Shown: one piece after another, positions 25,977-38,999 of the stretch | Layout of the letters: every line of letters begins with the position of its first letter | Position numbering within the stretch: position 1 is the first letter of the stretch | Assembly (NCBI GenBank): GCA_039024555.1 | Contig: JBCCQQ010000010.1 | Location: forward strand, 1 to 64,000 | Direction: 5' to 3' | Length of the DNA stretch: 64,000 nucleotides | From: Cyanobacteria bacterium P01_D01_bin.156 | GTDB taxonomy: Bacteria; Cyanobacteriota; Cyanobacteriia; Phormidesmidales; Phormidesmidaceae | Translations under genes and position numbers: made by a program | The notes under the pieces: model-generated | What the model was told of the DNA's origin: nothing | What the model saw: the letters and a program-made list of their open reading frames with translations, nothing else | The model's database searches: none

Positions 25977-26723
25977 CTATTTGACGGGTTTATGATTCCG
26001 TTTCCAGAATAGGCCAAGCCCGGCTAGTGCTGCGATCGCAAAACTGGGTTCGGGCACAGAAGTGACAGGCCCTTCATCGGGCTCAGAAATTCTTAGACCA
26101 AAATTGGTAATGGTTACCTGGGCTCGTCCGCCCTGATTATCACCCGTGCCAATAGAGAATCCGAAGATTTCGTTAGCTTCTATGGCAACAGTTGTTGAAC
26201 CCGTTTGTGCAGTCGCCCCAGCCCTATCGCTGAGTTGACTAAATGGACTGTCGGGTAACGCTTCAGGTGGTAAATCACTGACTACAAACCCAAATAAATC
26301 AAATGCTGCGCCACCAATATCATCAGTGATATATTCCCAATCAAAGAAGAGTTCACCGCTTTCTGGCACAGTCACATAGACTGTTGTAAAGCTGTCACGA
26401 CAAAGAAAGGAGAAGTCGCTGGGAACTGTATTACAGGTAAAACCAAATTGCTCTAAAATCCCTGACTGATTACTCCCTAGTAACGTGAGAGATTCAGGGG
26501 CATCAAACTCTACTGAACCATTAAACGGTGCCAGAGGAACACCATTAATAGCTAGGGCAGAGTTATCGATATCTGGAAATGCGGGACTGCTATTAAAAAG
26601 TTCCCACTGCTCGGGAGCAAAGTTGTCGGTAAATCCTTGTGCTGATGCTATCTGTGGAGATACACCCACCGCAGATATAATGATTGCTGCCCCGAAAACA
26701 GACTTAGAAATGGCGTTTGCCAT
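25977..26723 (-). CDS. PEP-CTERM sorting-domain exported protein
   Basis: Signal peptide; C-terminal VPEPS followed by a hydrophobic stretch and a basic tail (WKRNHK). Confidence 0.85.
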   Translation of the reverse strand: MANAISKSVFGAAIIISAVGVSPQIASAQGFTDNFAPEQWELFNSSPAFPDIDNSALAINGVPLAPFNGSVEFDAPESLTLLGSNQSGILEQFGFTCNTVPSDFSFLCRDSFTTVYVTVPESGELFFDWEYITDDIGGAAFDLFGFVVSDLPPEALPDSPFSQLSDRAGATAQTGSTTVAIEANEIFGFSIGTGDNQGGRAQVTITNFGLRISEPDEGPVTSVPEPSFAIAALAGLGLFWKRNHKPVK

Positions 26724-30477: not shown

Positions 30478-30655
30478 TCATTGAGCCGTCCCTGAGCCTG
30501 ACGATGGCTCTATGCCAAAGACGCTGTGGTCTTGGGTGTCTGGGTAAGAGGTTCATACACTTCATCAGGAACGGTATCGTTTGAAGTTGACGATTGGAAT
30601 TTGACGCGCTACCGTACAGATATTAATCAAAGAGTTTTCCCGAAGTATTTCATCC

Positions 30656-30703
30656 ATGCGTCGCAAGTTTTTCTACTTTTGGTTTATCCAGGTTCACCGG
30701 TAA
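30656..30703 (+). CDS. Aromatic amino acid attenuator leader peptide 1 (MRRKFFYFWFIQVHR)
   Basis: 15 codons including six consecutive Phe/Tyr/Trp codons. The 3' end overlaps the antiterminator arm. Confidence 0.85.
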   Translation: MRRKFFYFWFIQVHR

Positions 30704-30771
30704 GGAACCATGGTTTGAGCATGGAAGACCGGTGAACCGCAGAGCGCATGCCCTGCGGTTTTGTTTTTTTT
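30691..30771 (+). terminator. Attenuator 1: antiterminator plus intrinsic terminator
   Basis: GGTTCACCGGT (30691-30701) is the exact complement of ACCGGTGAACC (30728-30738). That arm overlaps the terminator stem AACCGCAG/CTGCGGTT (30735-30760), which is followed by TTGTTTTTTTT. Confidence 0.85.
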
Positions 30772-30794
30772 AATTTATTGGCATCATCATCCCT

Positions 30795-30857
30795 ATGACC
30801 GTTTATTACAGCTGGCAATTTACATTTTTCTTTTTTATGCCACCACCGGGTAGGTAG
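30795..30857 (+). CDS. Aromatic amino acid attenuator leader peptide 2 (MTVYYSWQFTFFFFMPPPGR)
   Basis: 20 codons, 8 aromatic (5 Phe, 2 Tyr, 1 Trp). The 3' end overlaps the antiterminator arm. Confidence 0.85.
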   Translation: MTVYYSWQFTFFFFMPPPGR

Positions 30858-30918
30858 CATTCGCTTTGCTTTACTGACTTGCCCGGAACCTTAACAGGTT
30901 GCGGGCTTTTTGTTTTTT
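30846..30918 (+). terminator. Attenuator 2: antiterminator plus intrinsic terminator
   Basis: CCGGGTAGGT (30846-30855) pairs over 10 bp (2 G-U) with ACTTGCCCGG (30877-30886). That arm overlaps the terminator GCCCGGAACCT-TAAC-AGGTTGCGGGC (30881-30906), followed by TTTTTGTTTTTT. Confidence 0.85.
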
Positions 30919-30939
30919 ACCGTTTCTATCTCTAAACCC

Positions 30940-31815
30940 ATGAATAACGCAAAACTTGTTGCCAAGACTCATCCTGACCACACCAGCATAATTTCGATTA
31001 CCCCTCATCTCTCTGTGGGTGGTAAAGACTTATTTATTGTTGGCGGTCCCTGTTCCATTGAGAGCATGTCACAAATGGAAACCATTGCTGCCTCTCTCCA
31101 AAATGCACCTGTACAGGCTTTACGAGGCGGTATTTACAAGCCCCGCACATCACCCTATGCATTCCAAGGTATTGGCGATGTTGGTTTAGATATTCTCACT
31201 GCCATCAACCAGCGCTACGGTTTACCTGTCATTACTGAGGTGATGGCCATTCACCAAATTGAAAAACTGGCAGAGTATGCGGATGTCCTACAGGTGGGCA
31301 GTCGTAATATGCAGAACTTTGACTTATTAAAAGCGCTGGGGGCGATTGACAAACCGATTCTTCTTAAGCGGGGGTTAGCGGCTACCGTCACCGAATTTGT
31401 AATGGCTGCAGAATATATTGCTAGTCATGGTAATTCTAAGATTATTCTCTGTGAGCGGGGCATCCGCAGCTTTGATAATTACACTCGCAATGTGCTGGAT
31501 TTGGGTGCCGTTGTTGCCCTGAAGCAGATTACTCACCTGCCGGTACTGGTGGATCCTAGCCATGCAACCGGAAAGCGGGAGCTGGTAGCTCCGCTAGCAA
31601 GAGCTGCCGTTGCGGCTGGAGCCGATGGTTTAATGATTGAATGTCATCCAACCCCTGAGCAGTCCATTAGTGATGCCCGACAGACCATGAGCCTAGAGGC
31701 CATGGTAGACCTTGTCGATAGTTTAAGACCTATTGCCCAAGCGGTTGGCCGTTCGATTCATCCAGTACCGACAAATGCCGATCTGAATTCTAGGGAGGTT
31801 GCGATCGCAGGCTAA
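30940..31815 (+). CDS. aroF: 3-deoxy-7-phosphoheptulonate (DAHP) synthase, type I-beta
   Basis: [36 protein letters not shown] and MIECHP motifs. ATG at 30940 follows terminator 2. Confidence 0.93.
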
Positions 31816-31973: not shown

Positions 31974-32688
31974 TTCCCCTAACTAGAGATGTCACTGAGA
32001 CCTTGGAACAATGTCTAACATTCACATGTCTGTGATGATAACTAGACCATAACGCGGCCACTAAGGGTGTCAGCCGTTAACGACTGTTTGCACATCGAGC
32101 ACTGTTATAGTAATCAGGGAAATTATCATGATGCTCAAATATATTGCTTGGTAGGCTTCGCAGAACTACTTCTGTAGGAATTTTCTTGGTGCATCAGGGC
32201 AACTGTTGAAGCTTAAAACATCAGCGCTATCAAATCTGTTGATTTCAGTGTCTATTGGTTTCAGTAATAGACGCTAGAAAAAGACAAGCTAAACGTTGCA
32301 GCTCATAATTATTGGTCTGACACAGTAGCTATCAGCCAAGTTTCCATAATTTACAGATTGCTTATTTTTCTGGGCTGGAATGTTCCGATTCCTGAACTTT
32401 TCCGAGTCTTGTCAACAACTGTTCGGATTCTTTGTAATTAGCTTGTTGATTAAGATATCGGGGGTGCTTTACTAGCGCTATTTTTTCATGTCTTTATAGC
32501 CATATTCAGATCAAAACTGAGGATGTGAGCTTCGGTTCAAGCCATCTATTCGAAGTTCTGATCAATTGTCAGAGTAATCTACAGCAAGCTGTTAATTGTA
32601 TTTAGCCGTTTGCACTGCCCATTGCTATGTAAAGTTCTGGCAATTACCTGACAGTTATATGCGCAAAGCTATCTTTTTATTTTTGGAG

Positions 32689-35520
32689 ATGCCTGAAGTG
32701 AAACGAAAGCACTTCCTAAAGGGTATACCTGCTGTCGCTACACTCTCAGTCTTAGTCGTTTTAGGTCTGAAAAATTTTGCTGTTGATTTTGACCAATATA
32801 GAAGCTACAGTGCCCTAATTTCAGATCAGCTGGTCAATGAAGCCGATGTTCAACTAGCATTGCAAAACATTCGCTATACCATTTCTCAAAATAGTCAGTC
32901 CCTCAACGTCGCTTTACTAGAAGCGGAAAAAGTTCAGCTTCAACTGACAGAGCAAATTCCTCCCTCTCTTTCAGACAGAAATAAAAATCGGCTACAAAAA
33001 CAGCTAGAGTTCAATGCTGAACTTCTAGAAGAAAAGCGTCAGCTCATTGAACAACTTGAAGGGCACCACGCCAAAGTAAGAACCGCCCTAGCTCAAGAGG
33101 CTAATTTATTAGAAGGGCTAGATGGTAATCTGCGGCTAGAAGTGGAAGCTTTGCTAGATGACTTATCTCTTTATGCAGTGACTAGTAATGAACAGCTGAT
33201 CCTTGACATTGACGTAAAACTCCAGCGCTTAGAGAACAGGCTCGGCATCAATACAGCAACCCAACAACGCATCAATCAGGCCACTCAAATTCTCCTAGAG
33301 AATAAGCCTGTGGCGGATCAGCTAGTCGATGAAGTATTTGATTTACCCCTAACTAATAATATTCGGGCTTTAGAAAAACAGTTTGCTGAGATTCAGCAAA
33401 CGACTCGAGGAAGAGTTGAACTATACCGTAGTTTAATCTACGCTCTATTATTTATCAGTTCGGGCGTTGTATCCTTTTGGGTTATCAGTCGTTTACGTCG
33501 CTCAAGCCAACATACCGTCAGAGTGTTAGAGAGTATCACGGATGCATTTATTGCTGTGGATCGTAAGTGGGCAATTACCTACGTAAACGCTCAGGCTGCT
33601 GATATCCTCAAGTGCGAGATTTCCGGACTATTAGGACAAAGTTTTCTGCAAGTATTACCCGAATCTTTGGGCAAGCGGTTTACTGGGTACTACCGTGATG
33701 CTGTCATTAAAAAATTGAGAGTAGTTAGCTTTGAAACTTACTATAAGCCTACCCAACGCTGGTTAATGGTAAGAGGTTACCCTAGTCGAGATGGGCTATC
33801 TATTTTCTTGCAAGACTTTACTGAACGCAAACAAGCTGAGGAAAAGCTATTAGAACTGAATCGTGACCTTGATAATCGGGTCAAAGACCGTACAGCCCAG
33901 TTGGCCAATGCGATGGAGGAGGCAGAATCAGCCCGTGTAAAAGCTGAAGATGCCAATCGCTCCAAGAGTGAATTTCTCGCCAATATGAGCCATGAGTTAC
34001 GGACGCCTTTGAATGCCATTATCGGCTACAGCGAAATGCTGGAAGAAGATATCTATAGCATTGGTGAAGATGAATTTGTTCCTGATCTACAGAAAATTCA
34101 AGGGGCTGGCAAACACCTATTGGGGCTGATTAATTCAGTGTTAGACCTCTCTAAAATTGAGGCTGGTCGCATGGAACTCTTTGTGGAAGAGATCCATGTA
34201 CAAACCCTGATTAAAGAAATCATGGGAACTATTCAGCCACTGGTACAGAAAAATTACAATCAGCTGTTTGTGTCCTGCCCCGATGACATTGGTACCATGT
34301 ACGCTGACCAGGTAAAGCTACGGCAAAGCTTGATTAACCTTCTCAGTAATGCTTGTAAATTTACAGAGAATGGCAAAATCACCCTAACAGTTAGCCCAAC
34401 TAGCATTAATCACCAGACAGGTACACAGGAAAATGGTGTGCAGTTTATGGTGACAGATACGGGTATTGGTATGACTCCAGAGCAAATGAGTAAAGTATTT
34501 CAAGCATTTACTCAGGCCGATACATCAACTACCCGTAAGTATGGCGGTACTGGATTAGGGCTGACTATCACCAAACAATTTATTTCCATGATGGGTGGAG
34601 ATGTCTTGGTGGATAGTACCTACGGTGAGGGAACGACATTCACACTGATGCTCCCGAGAACAGTGGATGCAGAGAATTTATCAGAGGAAACATTCTTTGC
34701 GCCTCCCATACCGCGTACTGAACGGGAAACTGTTTCAGCCCTTTATGAACTATCTGAACAAACATCTGAAAAAACTATACTGCTTGTGGTTGATGAGCCG
34801 CAGACTCAAGAAAATTTGAAGAACTGGTTAGCTGACGAGGGCTATACAGCTATTTTTCCCGTGGATAGACAACAAGCCCTTGCCTATGTCGATGAGCTAC
34901 TACCGGATGTTATTCTGCTCGACGGCTTGCTCCCACGGCAGGATAGGGAATTTCTTTTAGAAGAAATCAGGGCTAGAACAGATTTGACCCAGGTACCTAT
35001 TATTTGCCTATCAGCTCCCGATGAATATGCTAATACTTATCAGCTAGGTGTCACCGAGTATGTCTCTAGGCCCCTGCAACCTACTAGTTTACTCAACACC
35101 TTAGAAAAGTATTTTCCAGAGTCTCCAGGACCTAAAATTTTAGTTGTTGAAGATGACTCGGATGCACGGGAAATCATGGGTCGATTATTACGCCAGTACG
35201 ACTGGACAATAGCGTTAGCTGCGAATGGACTACAGGCCCTTGACTATCTTCAAAAAACTGTCCCGGATCTGATTATTGTTGATTTAATGATGCCGGACAT
35301 GGATGGCTTTGAGCTAGTTAAGCGTCTGCGCCAGTCAACTCAGTGGGGAAGTATTCCAATTATCGTTATTTCAGCTAAAACGTTAACCGCTAGAGAACAA
35401 AAGCAATTAGAAGGTGTGGTCCGGATCTATCAAAAAGCAAACTTTAATCGCCAAGAGCTATTGAATGATGTCAAACGGATTGTATCTGCCAGAGCTAATA
35501 GTACATCAATGGCAAGTTGA
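32689..35520 (+). CDS. Hybrid histidine kinase (2 TM, periplasmic helical DAHL-like sensor, PAS, HisKA-HATPase, 2 REC)
   Basis: [28 protein letters not shown] and GTGLGL motifs. First REC is degenerate. Start uncertain (ATG 32689 or GTG 32698). Confidence 0.92.
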
Positions 35521-36122: not shown

Positions 36123-38999
36123 ATGCTAGTGAATCGAGACGCTCTATTTCGAGGTGCAGGAGTCGCTGTTACTTTTCTGCTCCTTGCATTTTTAGGAATT
36201 AAAGGTAAATCTGTCGATGTGCGCCAGTACCAGCGTTACGCCGACTTGATTTCGAGCCAAGTTGAAAGTGATGCAGAAGTTGAACTGGCCTTGCTTAAGG
36301 AACGTTACACGGTTCTGCGGAATGACGAGCCCCTAGAGGAGGCATTGGCAGAAGAACTCTCTATTCAAGAAGAGCTCGCCAAAGAGGTTCCTGATTTTAT
36401 TTCTAAAGACGCCCAAGATACATTGCAGCAGTTAATTAGTCGGGATGCCCAGTTATTACAAGAAAAGACTGAGCTCATTAATCAATTTCAGCAAACCAAC
36501 TCGGAGCTGCAAAATGCCTTGGTGCAGCTGCCAAGTTTGGTTAATAACCTAAAGAATACCAGCGACGCTGATCTAGAACGGCTGATTGATGATGTCTTGA
36601 TTTACATTATGGCCACTGATGAGCAACTAGTGGCCACTATTGAGAAAGAGTTAGGTACTGTTGAGACTAAGCTAGATTCTAATGATTTCTCTAGTTCCGA
36701 TGATGTTGCACAGGTTGTTCAACTATCGCAGACGGTTTTACAAAATAAGCCCTTAGCCGATGCATTAGTCGATCAGGTCATCAACTTACCGCTTACTCAA
36801 AATATTAGAGAGTTAGAAGATGCCTTTGATCAGTCTAGCCGCAGTGCGTTTCGACGAACGGCACTCTATCGCAATACAGCTTACCTGGTGGCTCTCGCAC
36901 TCATTGGTGTGATTGCCTATAGTTTAATAGCTCGATTGAGGCAGTCGACCCAGCGGACAACAAGTGTCCTAGAAAATATTACTGATGCTTTTGTAGCCGT
37001 TGATCGTGGGTGGAAAGTCACCTATGTTAATGCGCAGGCTGCGGAAGTCTTAAAGCGAAATATTCAAGGACTTTTAGAACAGGATTTTTGGAAGATTTTT
37101 CCAGAATCTCTGGGCCTACGTTACCAGCAACAATATCGTCGGGCGATGGCTGAGCAAACGGTCGTCAGTTTTGAGACCTACTACGCTCCTACCCAACGTT
37201 GGCTACAGGTGCGGGGCTATCCTGGTCGTGATGGTCTGTCACTGTTTCTACAGGATGTTACGGAACGGAAGCAGGCAGAAGAGCAGTTGATGGAACTCAA
37301 CCGTGACTTGGATAGCCGCGTGCAGGATCGCACGACTAAACTCATGAAGGCTATGGAAGAAGCGGAAGAAGCGCGGGTTAAGGCAGAAGATGCCAACCGT
37401 TCTAAAAGTGAGTTCTTGGCAAATATGAGCCATGAACTACGGACGCCGCTCAACGCCATCATTGGTTACAGTGAAATGCTGGAAGAAGAAGCGACTGATG
37501 TCGGTGAAGACGACTTTGTTCCTGACTTACAAAAGATTCAGGGGGCAGGAAAACATTTACTGGGGCTGATTAATTCGGTGCTGGATCTGTCCAAAATCGA
37601 AGCGGGTCGGATGGAGCTGTTCTTAGAAGAATTTGCTATCCAAGACTTGGTAACAGATATTGCGGGGACCATTACGCCAGTTGCTCACAAAAATGAAAAT
37701 CATCTATCGGTGTTCTGTCCTGATGACATTGGTAACTTGCATGCAGATCAAACAAAGCTACGTCAAAGTTTGTTCAATTTGCTAAGCAATGCCTGCAAAT
37801 TTACTGAAAATGGTGATATTACTCTAACGGTAGAAGAAGTCTCTACGGTTGATAGTGATATCTATGACGGTCCATGGCTAAGGTTTATCGTTAGCGATAC
37901 CGGTATTGGTATGAAGGAAGATCAAATTGAAAAGATCTTTGATGCGTTTACCCAGGCCGATGCATCAACCACTCGAAAGTATGGCGGAACAGGTTTGGGA
38001 TTAGCCATTACCAAACAGTTTATCAATATGATGGGTGGTGATATCTCTGTAGAGAGTGCCCATGGCCAAGGAACAACATTTTCACTGCTGATTCCACAAG
38101 TGGTCCAGACTGCCAATGCTAAAGGGAAGACATTCTTTGCTCCAGCCCTATCTTCTGAAGGGGCATCGAGCCTGCCCAGTGGCGATATCACTAAGATAGC
38201 GACCAAACAAACAATTTTAGTGATTGATGACGACCAGGATGCTCGAGAAATCTTGCGTCGTTCTCTAAATGAGGCTGGTTATAACGTAGTTTGTGCAAGC
38301 AGTGGAGAGCAGGGACTGGCATTAGCAGAAGAGCTATTACCAGATGCCATTACTTTGGATGTAATGATGCCACAGATGGATGGATGGTCTGTATTGAGGC
38401 AGCTTAAAGAGACCCCCACGGTTGCGGATATTCCTGTTATTTTATTGTCCATTGTCGATGATCGTCCCCTGGGCCACAGTCTGGGAGCTGCAGATTATCT
38501 TACTAAACCCATTGATAGGCAGCGGCTGCTGGGAGTTTTAGAAGCTCATCTTTCCGGTCAAGCATCACCCACAATTTTGGTGGTTGAAGACGATGTCAAT
38601 GCCCGGGAGATTATGGGGCGCTTTTTACAGCGCCAAGATTGGACGGTAGATTTGGCCGCCAATGGGCGTGAAGCGGTGCATTATCTGGATGTGACAACGC
38701 CAGACCTGATTGTCCTGGATTTAATGATGCCTGAAATGGATGGATTTGAATTTATTCAGGTCTTGCGCCAAAATCCAGACTGGCAAGATATTCCTGTGAT
38801 TGTTGTTACGGCTAAAGCATTAACCGTTAGCGATCAACAGCAGCTGGAAGGCGTCGCACGGGTGTATCAAAAGGCCGATCTCAATCGTCAAGAGTTACTG
38901 AATGAGCTGCAGGCAGTTGTGTCAGCTAAAACAGTCTCAATGCCCAGTACAACAGATTCAGTGTCTAGCCCTGATAGGGTGTCTAGTACATCTGATTAA
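36123..38999 (+). CDS. Hybrid histidine kinase, paralog of the upstream gene
   Basis: Same architecture with near-identical PAS/HisKA/HATPase; both REC domains canonical. AGGAGG precedes the ATG. Confidence 0.94.

Follow-up and report, generated by a model that had tools for sequence, protein, structure and literature searches.

Introduction

The closest described systems to the element reported here are the classical trp, phe and leu attenuators, which, as far as the available parts of two sources describe them, combine a short open reading frame (ORF) with codons for the end product, an antiterminator arm under the last of these codons, an overlapping terminator and a biosynthetic gene (PMC3641672, PMC2659441). 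Our element shares this layout; unlike those systems, it has two units arranged serially, each with codons for all three aromatic amino acids, shows no supported 1:2 protector hairpin, lies in a cyanobacterial host and matches no Rfam family. A leader with two short ORFs, each steering alternative stem-loops, is also described for Salmonella mgtCBR, where mgtM senses ATP and mgtP senses Pro-tRNA, their effects are additive, and the stem-loops are unlike intrinsic terminators (PMC3641672, available part). A tandem leader-peptide attenuator, of which the initial annotation of our locus named no described case, is thus on record, though the two Salmonella ORFs respond to different signals, whereas here both units read one codon class and each has its own U-tailed terminator. 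Tandem riboswitches, for example that of Bacillus clausii metE, likewise place two independent switches and two intrinsic terminators in one leader (PMC3641672, available part), but they bind their ligand directly, while the predicted sensor in our element is the ribosome.

Short ORFs and/or terminators before DAHP synthase genes have been recorded as well: a predicted single-uORF attenuator (uORFC-13-1) for Acholeplasma aroF (PMC8632094), a table row giving Shewanella aroF as an attenuator (PMC2659441), and a supplement row annotating a Photobacterium DAHP synthase gene as Trp_leader (PMC2965389). By their descriptions in the accessible parts of these sources, rather than by sequence comparison, these cases differ from ours in being single units from other phyla. 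For cyanobacteria, the accessible text of a 2016 paper speaks of no reliable data on attenuation (PMC4833913), and transcription-translation coupling is, according to the accessible part of another source, not universal among bacteria (PMC7858274). The Synechococcus elongatus aroF row in PMC2965389 gives a terminator with no leader note, and no Nostoc or Anabaena DAHP synthase is among the rows listed in the portion available. Term searches gave no match in the text and six supplements of PMC4734099 or in the one supplement of PMC8632094 that was searched, and no cyanobacteria in PMC5314783; the available portions of PMC10895346 and PMC11439500 hold nothing on a tandem aromatic element. Overall we found no published report of such an element, most subscription papers lying outside the search.

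Results

Two predicted attenuators precede a DAHP synthase gene

The window analyzed here is a stretch of 64,000 nucleotides from the genome of Cyanobacteria bacterium P01_D01_bin.156. It encodes, at 30940..31815 on the forward strand, a short type I-beta DAHP synthase of 291 amino acids (PF00793 without PF18152), and all elements described below precede this gene on the same strand. A candidate promoter, recognized by its sequence pattern, occupies 30587..30615 (forward), with a −35 box TTGACG at 30587-30592, a 17-nt spacer and a −10 box TACCGT at 30610-30615; transcription would be expected to start at about 30621-30622. A strict promoter/terminator scan picked up neither this promoter nor terminators 1 and 2.

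Leader ORF 1 (30656..30703, forward) encodes 15 amino acids, with an aromatic run at 30668-30685 that comprises four Phe, one Tyr and one Trp across six adjoining codons. Antiterminator 1 (30691..30738, forward), predicted by folding, pairs 30691-30701 with 30728-30738 through 11 bp, with a further helix of 5 bp inside (−26.4 kcal/mol when the part is folded in isolation), and captures only the bottom three pairs of the predicted intrinsic terminator 1 (30736..30771, forward), which consists of a hairpin at 30736-30759 (−14.1 kcal/mol) and a U tract reaching 30771. Leader ORF 2 (30795..30857, forward) encodes 20 amino acids, its aromatic codons (two Tyr, one Trp, five Phe) lying between 30804 and 30836. 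Folding likewise predicts antiterminator 2 (30846..30886, forward; 30846-30859 paired with 30867-30886, −19.2 kcal/mol), which captures the lower 5' arm of the predicted intrinsic terminator 2 (30881..30918, forward; hairpin 30881-30906, −18.0 kcal/mol, U tract to 30918). Re-reading the sequence thus confirmed the two leaders of the initial annotation, each with Phe, Tyr and Trp codons, and our folds agree with its proposal that in both units the 5' arm of the antiterminator lies beneath the end of the leader while the 3' arm overlaps a U-tailed terminator.

The fold of the region as a whole is modest (z = −2.7; 2 of 100 shuffles were equally good). A loose leader-plus-terminator filter passed 13 of the 159 aromatic-rich short ORFs in the genome, two of which are these adjacent leaders, and this result, together with the conservation across the class described below, suggests that the layout is more than chance. 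A search of the window against Rfam was negative at gathering score, as was one at E up to 10 over 30480-30960; the tandem before DAHP synthase belongs to no Rfam family.

Several neighboring features were recorded along the way. A RidA-family gene (PF01042; 30088-30477, forward) lies just upstream; 22 of the 101 loci, most of them closely related, have the same neighbor. Two adjoining hybrid histidine kinases (32596-35520 and 36123-38999, both forward), each with a DAHL-PAS-HisKA-HATPase-receiver order, look like a tandem duplication. A 248-amino-acid ORF on the reverse strand (25977-26723) has a signal-peptide-like start, a PEP-CTERM-like tail and no Pfam match.

The downstream gene encodes a short second isozyme

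The enzyme encoded in the window aligns to the Thermotoga chain 1rzm from residue 70 onward, and scores above the TIGR01361 cut-off and below the cut-offs for KDO8P synthase. Its closest named relatives come from Leptothoe and related cyanobacteria and are up to 85% identical. It comprises the catalytic barrel only, lacking both the N-terminal ferredoxin-like (ACT-type) domain PF18152 and a chorismate mutase extension. PF18152, found above cut-off in four of five long paralogues scanned, confers feedback inhibition in DAHP synthase, and the missing domain suggests that the short enzyme probably escapes end-product inhibition.

A family search of the source genome also found a type I-alpha DAHP synthase (at C1), which rules out that the short enzyme is the only one in the genome; no aromatic-rich ORF occurs within 450 nt upstream of this second gene. 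Of the 44 genomes carrying the short enzyme, a further long match is present in 30 and a second PF00793 gene in 13 of the remaining 14, and the short enzyme is a second isozyme in 43 of the 44. The initial annotation had overlooked the absent regulatory domain, the second isozyme and the spread of the element over much of the class. In one genome (G405) it is found in two pieces, at the ends of C108 and C12, with both units preceding the first piece, which is likely an assembly break.

Trp makes up 0.03% of the residues of the short enzymes, whereas the catalytic portions of 30 long paralogues contain 0.62%, and only 10 of 101 short enzymes contain any Trp at all. The short enzymes also favor TTC and TAC (61% and 65%), opposite to the TTT/TAT preference of the genome and to the TTT use of the leaders. 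Upstream of trpE (at C9) there was no Trp-rich leader; two other matches had too little or misplaced upstream DNA.

The tandem is conserved across cyanobacterial loci

We collapsed 110 loci to 101 distinct ones; since these loci are kin, the counts that follow are not independent. Motif rules that were drawn up after inspection of the data recover both leaders in 90 of those 97 loci whose upstream sequence extends to 600 nt or more, and three additions by eye bring the tandem to 96 of the 101 distinct loci, from Leptothoe, Nostoc, Microcoleus, Gloeobacterales and others. Homologues of leader 1 occur in 98 of 101 loci, and homologues of leader 2 likewise in 98. Alignment of the upstream regions, as the initial annotation had suggested, showed that the aromatic codon runs are conserved: Phe, Tyr and Trp are all present in 87 of 90 distinct leader-1 and 89 of 94 distinct leader-2 coding sequences, and aromatic residues fill 94-100% of each of five leader-1 columns, interchanging between F, Y and W. 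These positions also interchange between synonymous codons. ATGs located 30-75 nt ahead of the stop are in frame far more often than out of frame (99 versus 2 in unit 1, 97 versus 22 in unit 2), which indirectly supports translation of the leaders. Shine-Dalgarno-like sites are scarce ahead of the leaders (1 of 98 for leader 1, 17 of 98 for leader 2) as compared with the genes (75 of 101). TTT accounts for 85% and 81% of the Phe codons in leaders 1 and 2, as compared to 72% in flanking ORFs.

The spacing within each unit is equally regular. The last aromatic codon lies seven codons from the stop in 77 of 98 leader-1 and 94 of 97 leader-2 sequences; downstream of the leader, a hairpin of −7 kcal/mol or lower with its U tract is present in 98 of 98 cases for unit 1 and 97 of 98 for unit 2, the distance from stop to U tract being 44-57 nt in unit 1 and 46-60 nt in unit 2. 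TTNTTT was found in 68 of 90 leader-1 and 76 of 94 leader-2 sequences, counted without a control run. T-rich motifs of this type are NusG-type pause motifs. We dropped such a reading for the leaders, as these counts are uncontrolled and the part of PMC10895346 available offers no support for it.

Five of the 101 loci depart from the tandem (L030, L045, L061, L070 and L081). The first of these is truncated by a contig end. Two Calothrix loci (L045 and L061) have, about 195 nt before the gene, a leader 2 that keeps its aromatic run but has lost the stop and reads some 25 codons further (about 44 codons), through its own terminator. At L070, from one Microcoleus genome, an insertion-like stretch replaces unit 1 and the promoter and reaches the start of leader 2. 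Single units ahead of the gene occur in both forms, with unit 1 alone in G077 and G350 and unit 2 alone in G404 and L081.

A promoter pattern of TTGAC[AGT]-N16-18-TANNNT lies ahead of leader 1 in 92 of 97 loci, and the same pattern appears within the leader region in only 1 of 96. These patterns support a single predicted promoter serving both units, with none between them. The units do not look like a recent duplication of one another: their models cross-score at 15.5 and 7.7 bits versus 86.1 and 67.6 for themselves, and their stems differ.

Compensatory changes in the alternative helices

Covariation was assessed in subsets of loci hand-picked for diversity (50 of 98 for unit 1 and 49 of 97 for unit 2), with shuffle controls that overstate the signal because the helices were derived from the same, related sequences. 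Antiterminator 1 has 95.5% of its cells paired and both-side changes at 7 of 11 pairs, and 0 of 500 shuffles reached as high; in terminator 2, the paired fraction is 90.4%, and 5 of 10 pairs show both-side changes (4 of 500 shuffles as high). In terminator 1, 99.7% of cells are paired and both-side changes occur at 3 of 7 pairs, three cells in total. For antiterminator 2, pairing itself is high (93.1%; 0 of 500 shuffles as high), but both-side changes, at 2 of 8 pairs, are no better than chance (188 of 500 shuffles as high). The stem covariation that the initial annotation expected is therefore clear for antiterminator 1 and terminator 2 and weak for antiterminator 2.

The arms of unit 1 occur in 27 variants, 26 of which keep at least 8 of 9 pairs, including those in which the leader changes from VH to VR or AH. 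The codons for the C-terminal VH and SG of the leaders follow changes in the stem and, since arm variants keep their pairing despite the residue changes, these codons appear to be conserved for the stem. Upstream pairing of the antiterminator arm (1:2 type) was found in 14% of loci in unit 1 and 77% in unit 2; a 1:2 protector or pause hairpin is not supported, the one candidate helix examined, in unit 2, showing no covariation.

Taken together, the conservation, the compensatory changes and the fixed spacing bear out the trp/phe-type layout proposed in the initial annotation, and with the single upstream promoter pattern they also favor its placing of two attenuators in series.

Gene-blind searches find the element only ahead of the short enzyme

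We searched 121 genomes of the class with a covariance model for each unit, blind to the gene; several of these genomes had supplied training sequences, and the stricter filters can miss weak matches. Unit 1 was matched in 43 genomes, unit 2 in 42 and both in 41, always once and adjoining. The union of 44 genomes is exactly the set that has the short enzyme (bit score of at least 366), 41 with the tandem and 3 with a single unit, and the models found the element in none of the other 77. All 59 model-match loci that were fetched carry the gene.

A pattern made of the antiterminator-1 arms alone gave at least 120 metagenome matches and one viral match, duplicates kept. Among the 121 matches listed, 68 have an in-frame aromatic run and 67 of those a terminator arm, and all 43 aromatic-rich listed matches with 600 nt downstream carry leader 2 and the gene; none of the other 53 matches listed has a terminator arm or the gene.

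As a control we inspected 34 loci of long paralogues, of which 4 were dropped for misplaced starts. Judged by eye, 28 of the remaining 30 have no leader of this kind. In the other two (L212:643-875 and L213, in G353 and G337, from one genus), a long DAHP synthase that retains the regulatory domain is preceded by a single aromatic leader, with a unit-2-like end and a strong U-tailed terminator, that both covariance models overlooked. This leader is possibly an ancestral or an independent form. The short enzymes form one group in a quick tree (support 94), where three groups, including L212/L213, meet in an undivided fork.

Folding suggests a switch that depends on folding order

In both units the antiterminator and terminator states are close in energy (−34.8 versus −33.8 in unit 1, −22.9 versus −26.5 in unit 2). 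When the ribosome is represented as a mask (to +9), the probability of the unit-1 terminator is 0.1-0.2 with the A site at Y7, F8 or W9, 0.4 at F5 and F6, and 1.0 from codon 11 onward. The antiterminator is already blocked when the ribosome stalls at the last Phe, or at Trp if the footprint is taken as +12, and antiterminated unit 1 retains a residual hairpin close to the U tract. In unit 2 of the window the terminator moves merely from 0.8 to 1.0 in equilibrium masked folds, and the equilibrium shift exceeds 0.5 in 32 of 97 unit-2 homologues. Masked folding, another check named in the initial annotation, thus gave a switch for unit 1 and hardly any for unit 2 at equilibrium, so that the model requires co-transcriptional folding order. 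Consistent with such an order, folds of nascent chains cut before the 3' arm of the terminator yield the antiterminator in 85% of loci for unit 1 and 95% for unit 2 when the ribosome is placed mid-run, and in 0% when it is placed at the stop, the latter partly by construction. Provided that the order of folding is decisive, as it is in classical attenuators, the switch is therefore plausible.

RNA contigs from a Nostoc relative

RNA data were available as assembled contigs from a Nostoc relative (L075; 10-18% word share), and 4 of 24 runs were compared. In X1, a 313-nt contig spanning both units carries adapter sequence some 30 nt ahead of leader 1 and stops within terminator 2; a contig in X4, from another study, also ends at terminator 2, and one contig each in X9 and X21 continues into the gene. 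Contig ends at terminator 1 were absent from the four runs. Contigs of two runs span terminator 1 and leader 2 unbroken, which falls short of proving a single transcript. Contig depth in one run was 295 in the leader versus 30 in the gene, a depth that gives no ranking of the parts, and repeats follow terminator 2 at this locus (L075). Since contigs can show neither ends nor levels, these data are a weak hint in favor of the attenuation model.

Alternative explanations

The same RNA switch might respond in nature to the speed at which UNN codons are decoded, set by tRNA position-37 modification (MiaA/MiaB) or by general translation stress, rather than to a lack of amino acids as such. Phe, Tyr and Trp codons all begin with U, the source genome has a miaB gene, TTT is enriched in the leaders, and in Pseudomonas, trp attenuation is overridden by loss of MiaA, which causes stalling at Trp codons (PMC13434334, available part). 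However, the run consists of the three end products of the pathway, and other UNN codons (Cys, UUR-Leu, UCN-Ser) are not substituted into it, as seen in the near-invariably aromatic columns of leader 1; moreover the TTT excess is modest and the enzyme itself avoids Trp. We therefore consider this signal unlikely, although it would be compatible with the tandem attenuators. Another question is whether one unit alone regulates, the other being a leaky or constitutive terminator or mainly a source of small RNA or peptide. The missing contig ends at terminator 1, the near-complete lack of Shine-Dalgarno-like sites before leader 1 and the weak covariation of antiterminator 2 would fit such a division, but an in-frame ATG, an aromatic run and both alternative helices are kept in each unit, and each is also found alone before the gene, making a single working unit, in our judgment, quite improbable.

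TnaC is a nascent-peptide arrest system, and by analogy free aromatic amino acid could pin the ribosome at the leader stop, so that the arm stays covered and termination is forced. The prevailing seven-codon distance from the last aromatic residue to the stop and the strongly hydrophobic leader cores, with a FYFW-like motif common to both, would suit an arrest peptide. In some lineages, though, the stop shifts relative to the run while run and stem keep a constant distance, leader 2 extends well beyond its usual end in the two Calothrix loci, and the C-terminal residues vary with compensating changes in the stem; arrest is thus very improbable. Translational control by masking of the gene's ribosome site is also unlikely, the U tract of terminator 2 lying 23-324 nt (median 47) before the ATG.

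Discussion

Our preferred reading, to which we assign a probability of about 0.8 on the strength of the comparative sequence evidence, is that two ribosome-mediated transcription attenuators in series on one transcript release a feedback-free booster enzyme when aromatic tRNAs run short. With ample charged aromatic tRNAs, the ribosome would reach the last leader codons and cover the 5' arm of the antiterminator, the terminator would form and RNA polymerase would stop. Under a shortage of charged Phe-, Tyr- or Trp-tRNA, the ribosome would wait on the aromatic run, allowing the antiterminator to form and transcription to continue. Both gates would have to open for transcription to reach the gene and, since each leader holds all three codon types, shortage of any one aromatic amino acid could open both.

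The read-through fractions of the two gates should multiply, giving tighter repression and a steeper response to one class of signal. As Phe, Tyr and Trp codons are all read in each leader, the expected effect of the series is a sharper single response, not an AND between amino acids. Late ribosome loading, if frequent, would leak at each gate, and a second gate would restore tight repression. Since the enzyme probably escapes inhibition and stands beside a housekeeping isozyme, it may act as a starvation-released booster whose activity is set by the level of its synthesis. More broadly, we lean slightly towards the view that a substantial share of cyanobacteria use two independent ribosome attenuators, dissimilar in sequence and sensing the same three aminoacyl-tRNAs, to control a DAHP synthase isozyme that is free of feedback, the multiplied read-through providing a steeper switch that replaces allostery.

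If true, this would be, within the literature searched, the first case in which two leader-peptide attenuators in tandem, each with its own intrinsic terminator, respond to the same signal, and it would provide direct evidence of functional transcription-translation coupling in cyanobacteria. As a compact test case spanning the class, the element allows attenuation, and hence ribosome-polymerase coupling, to be examined in these bacteria, and the natural single-unit versions of both kinds let the question of why there are two be tested directly. It may also bear on the engineering of aromatic products in cyanobacteria, and could serve as a ready sensor part for aromatic amino acids. For the biology of the group, these results hint at an isozyme at the entry to the shikimate pathway that is governed by its synthesis and not by allostery.
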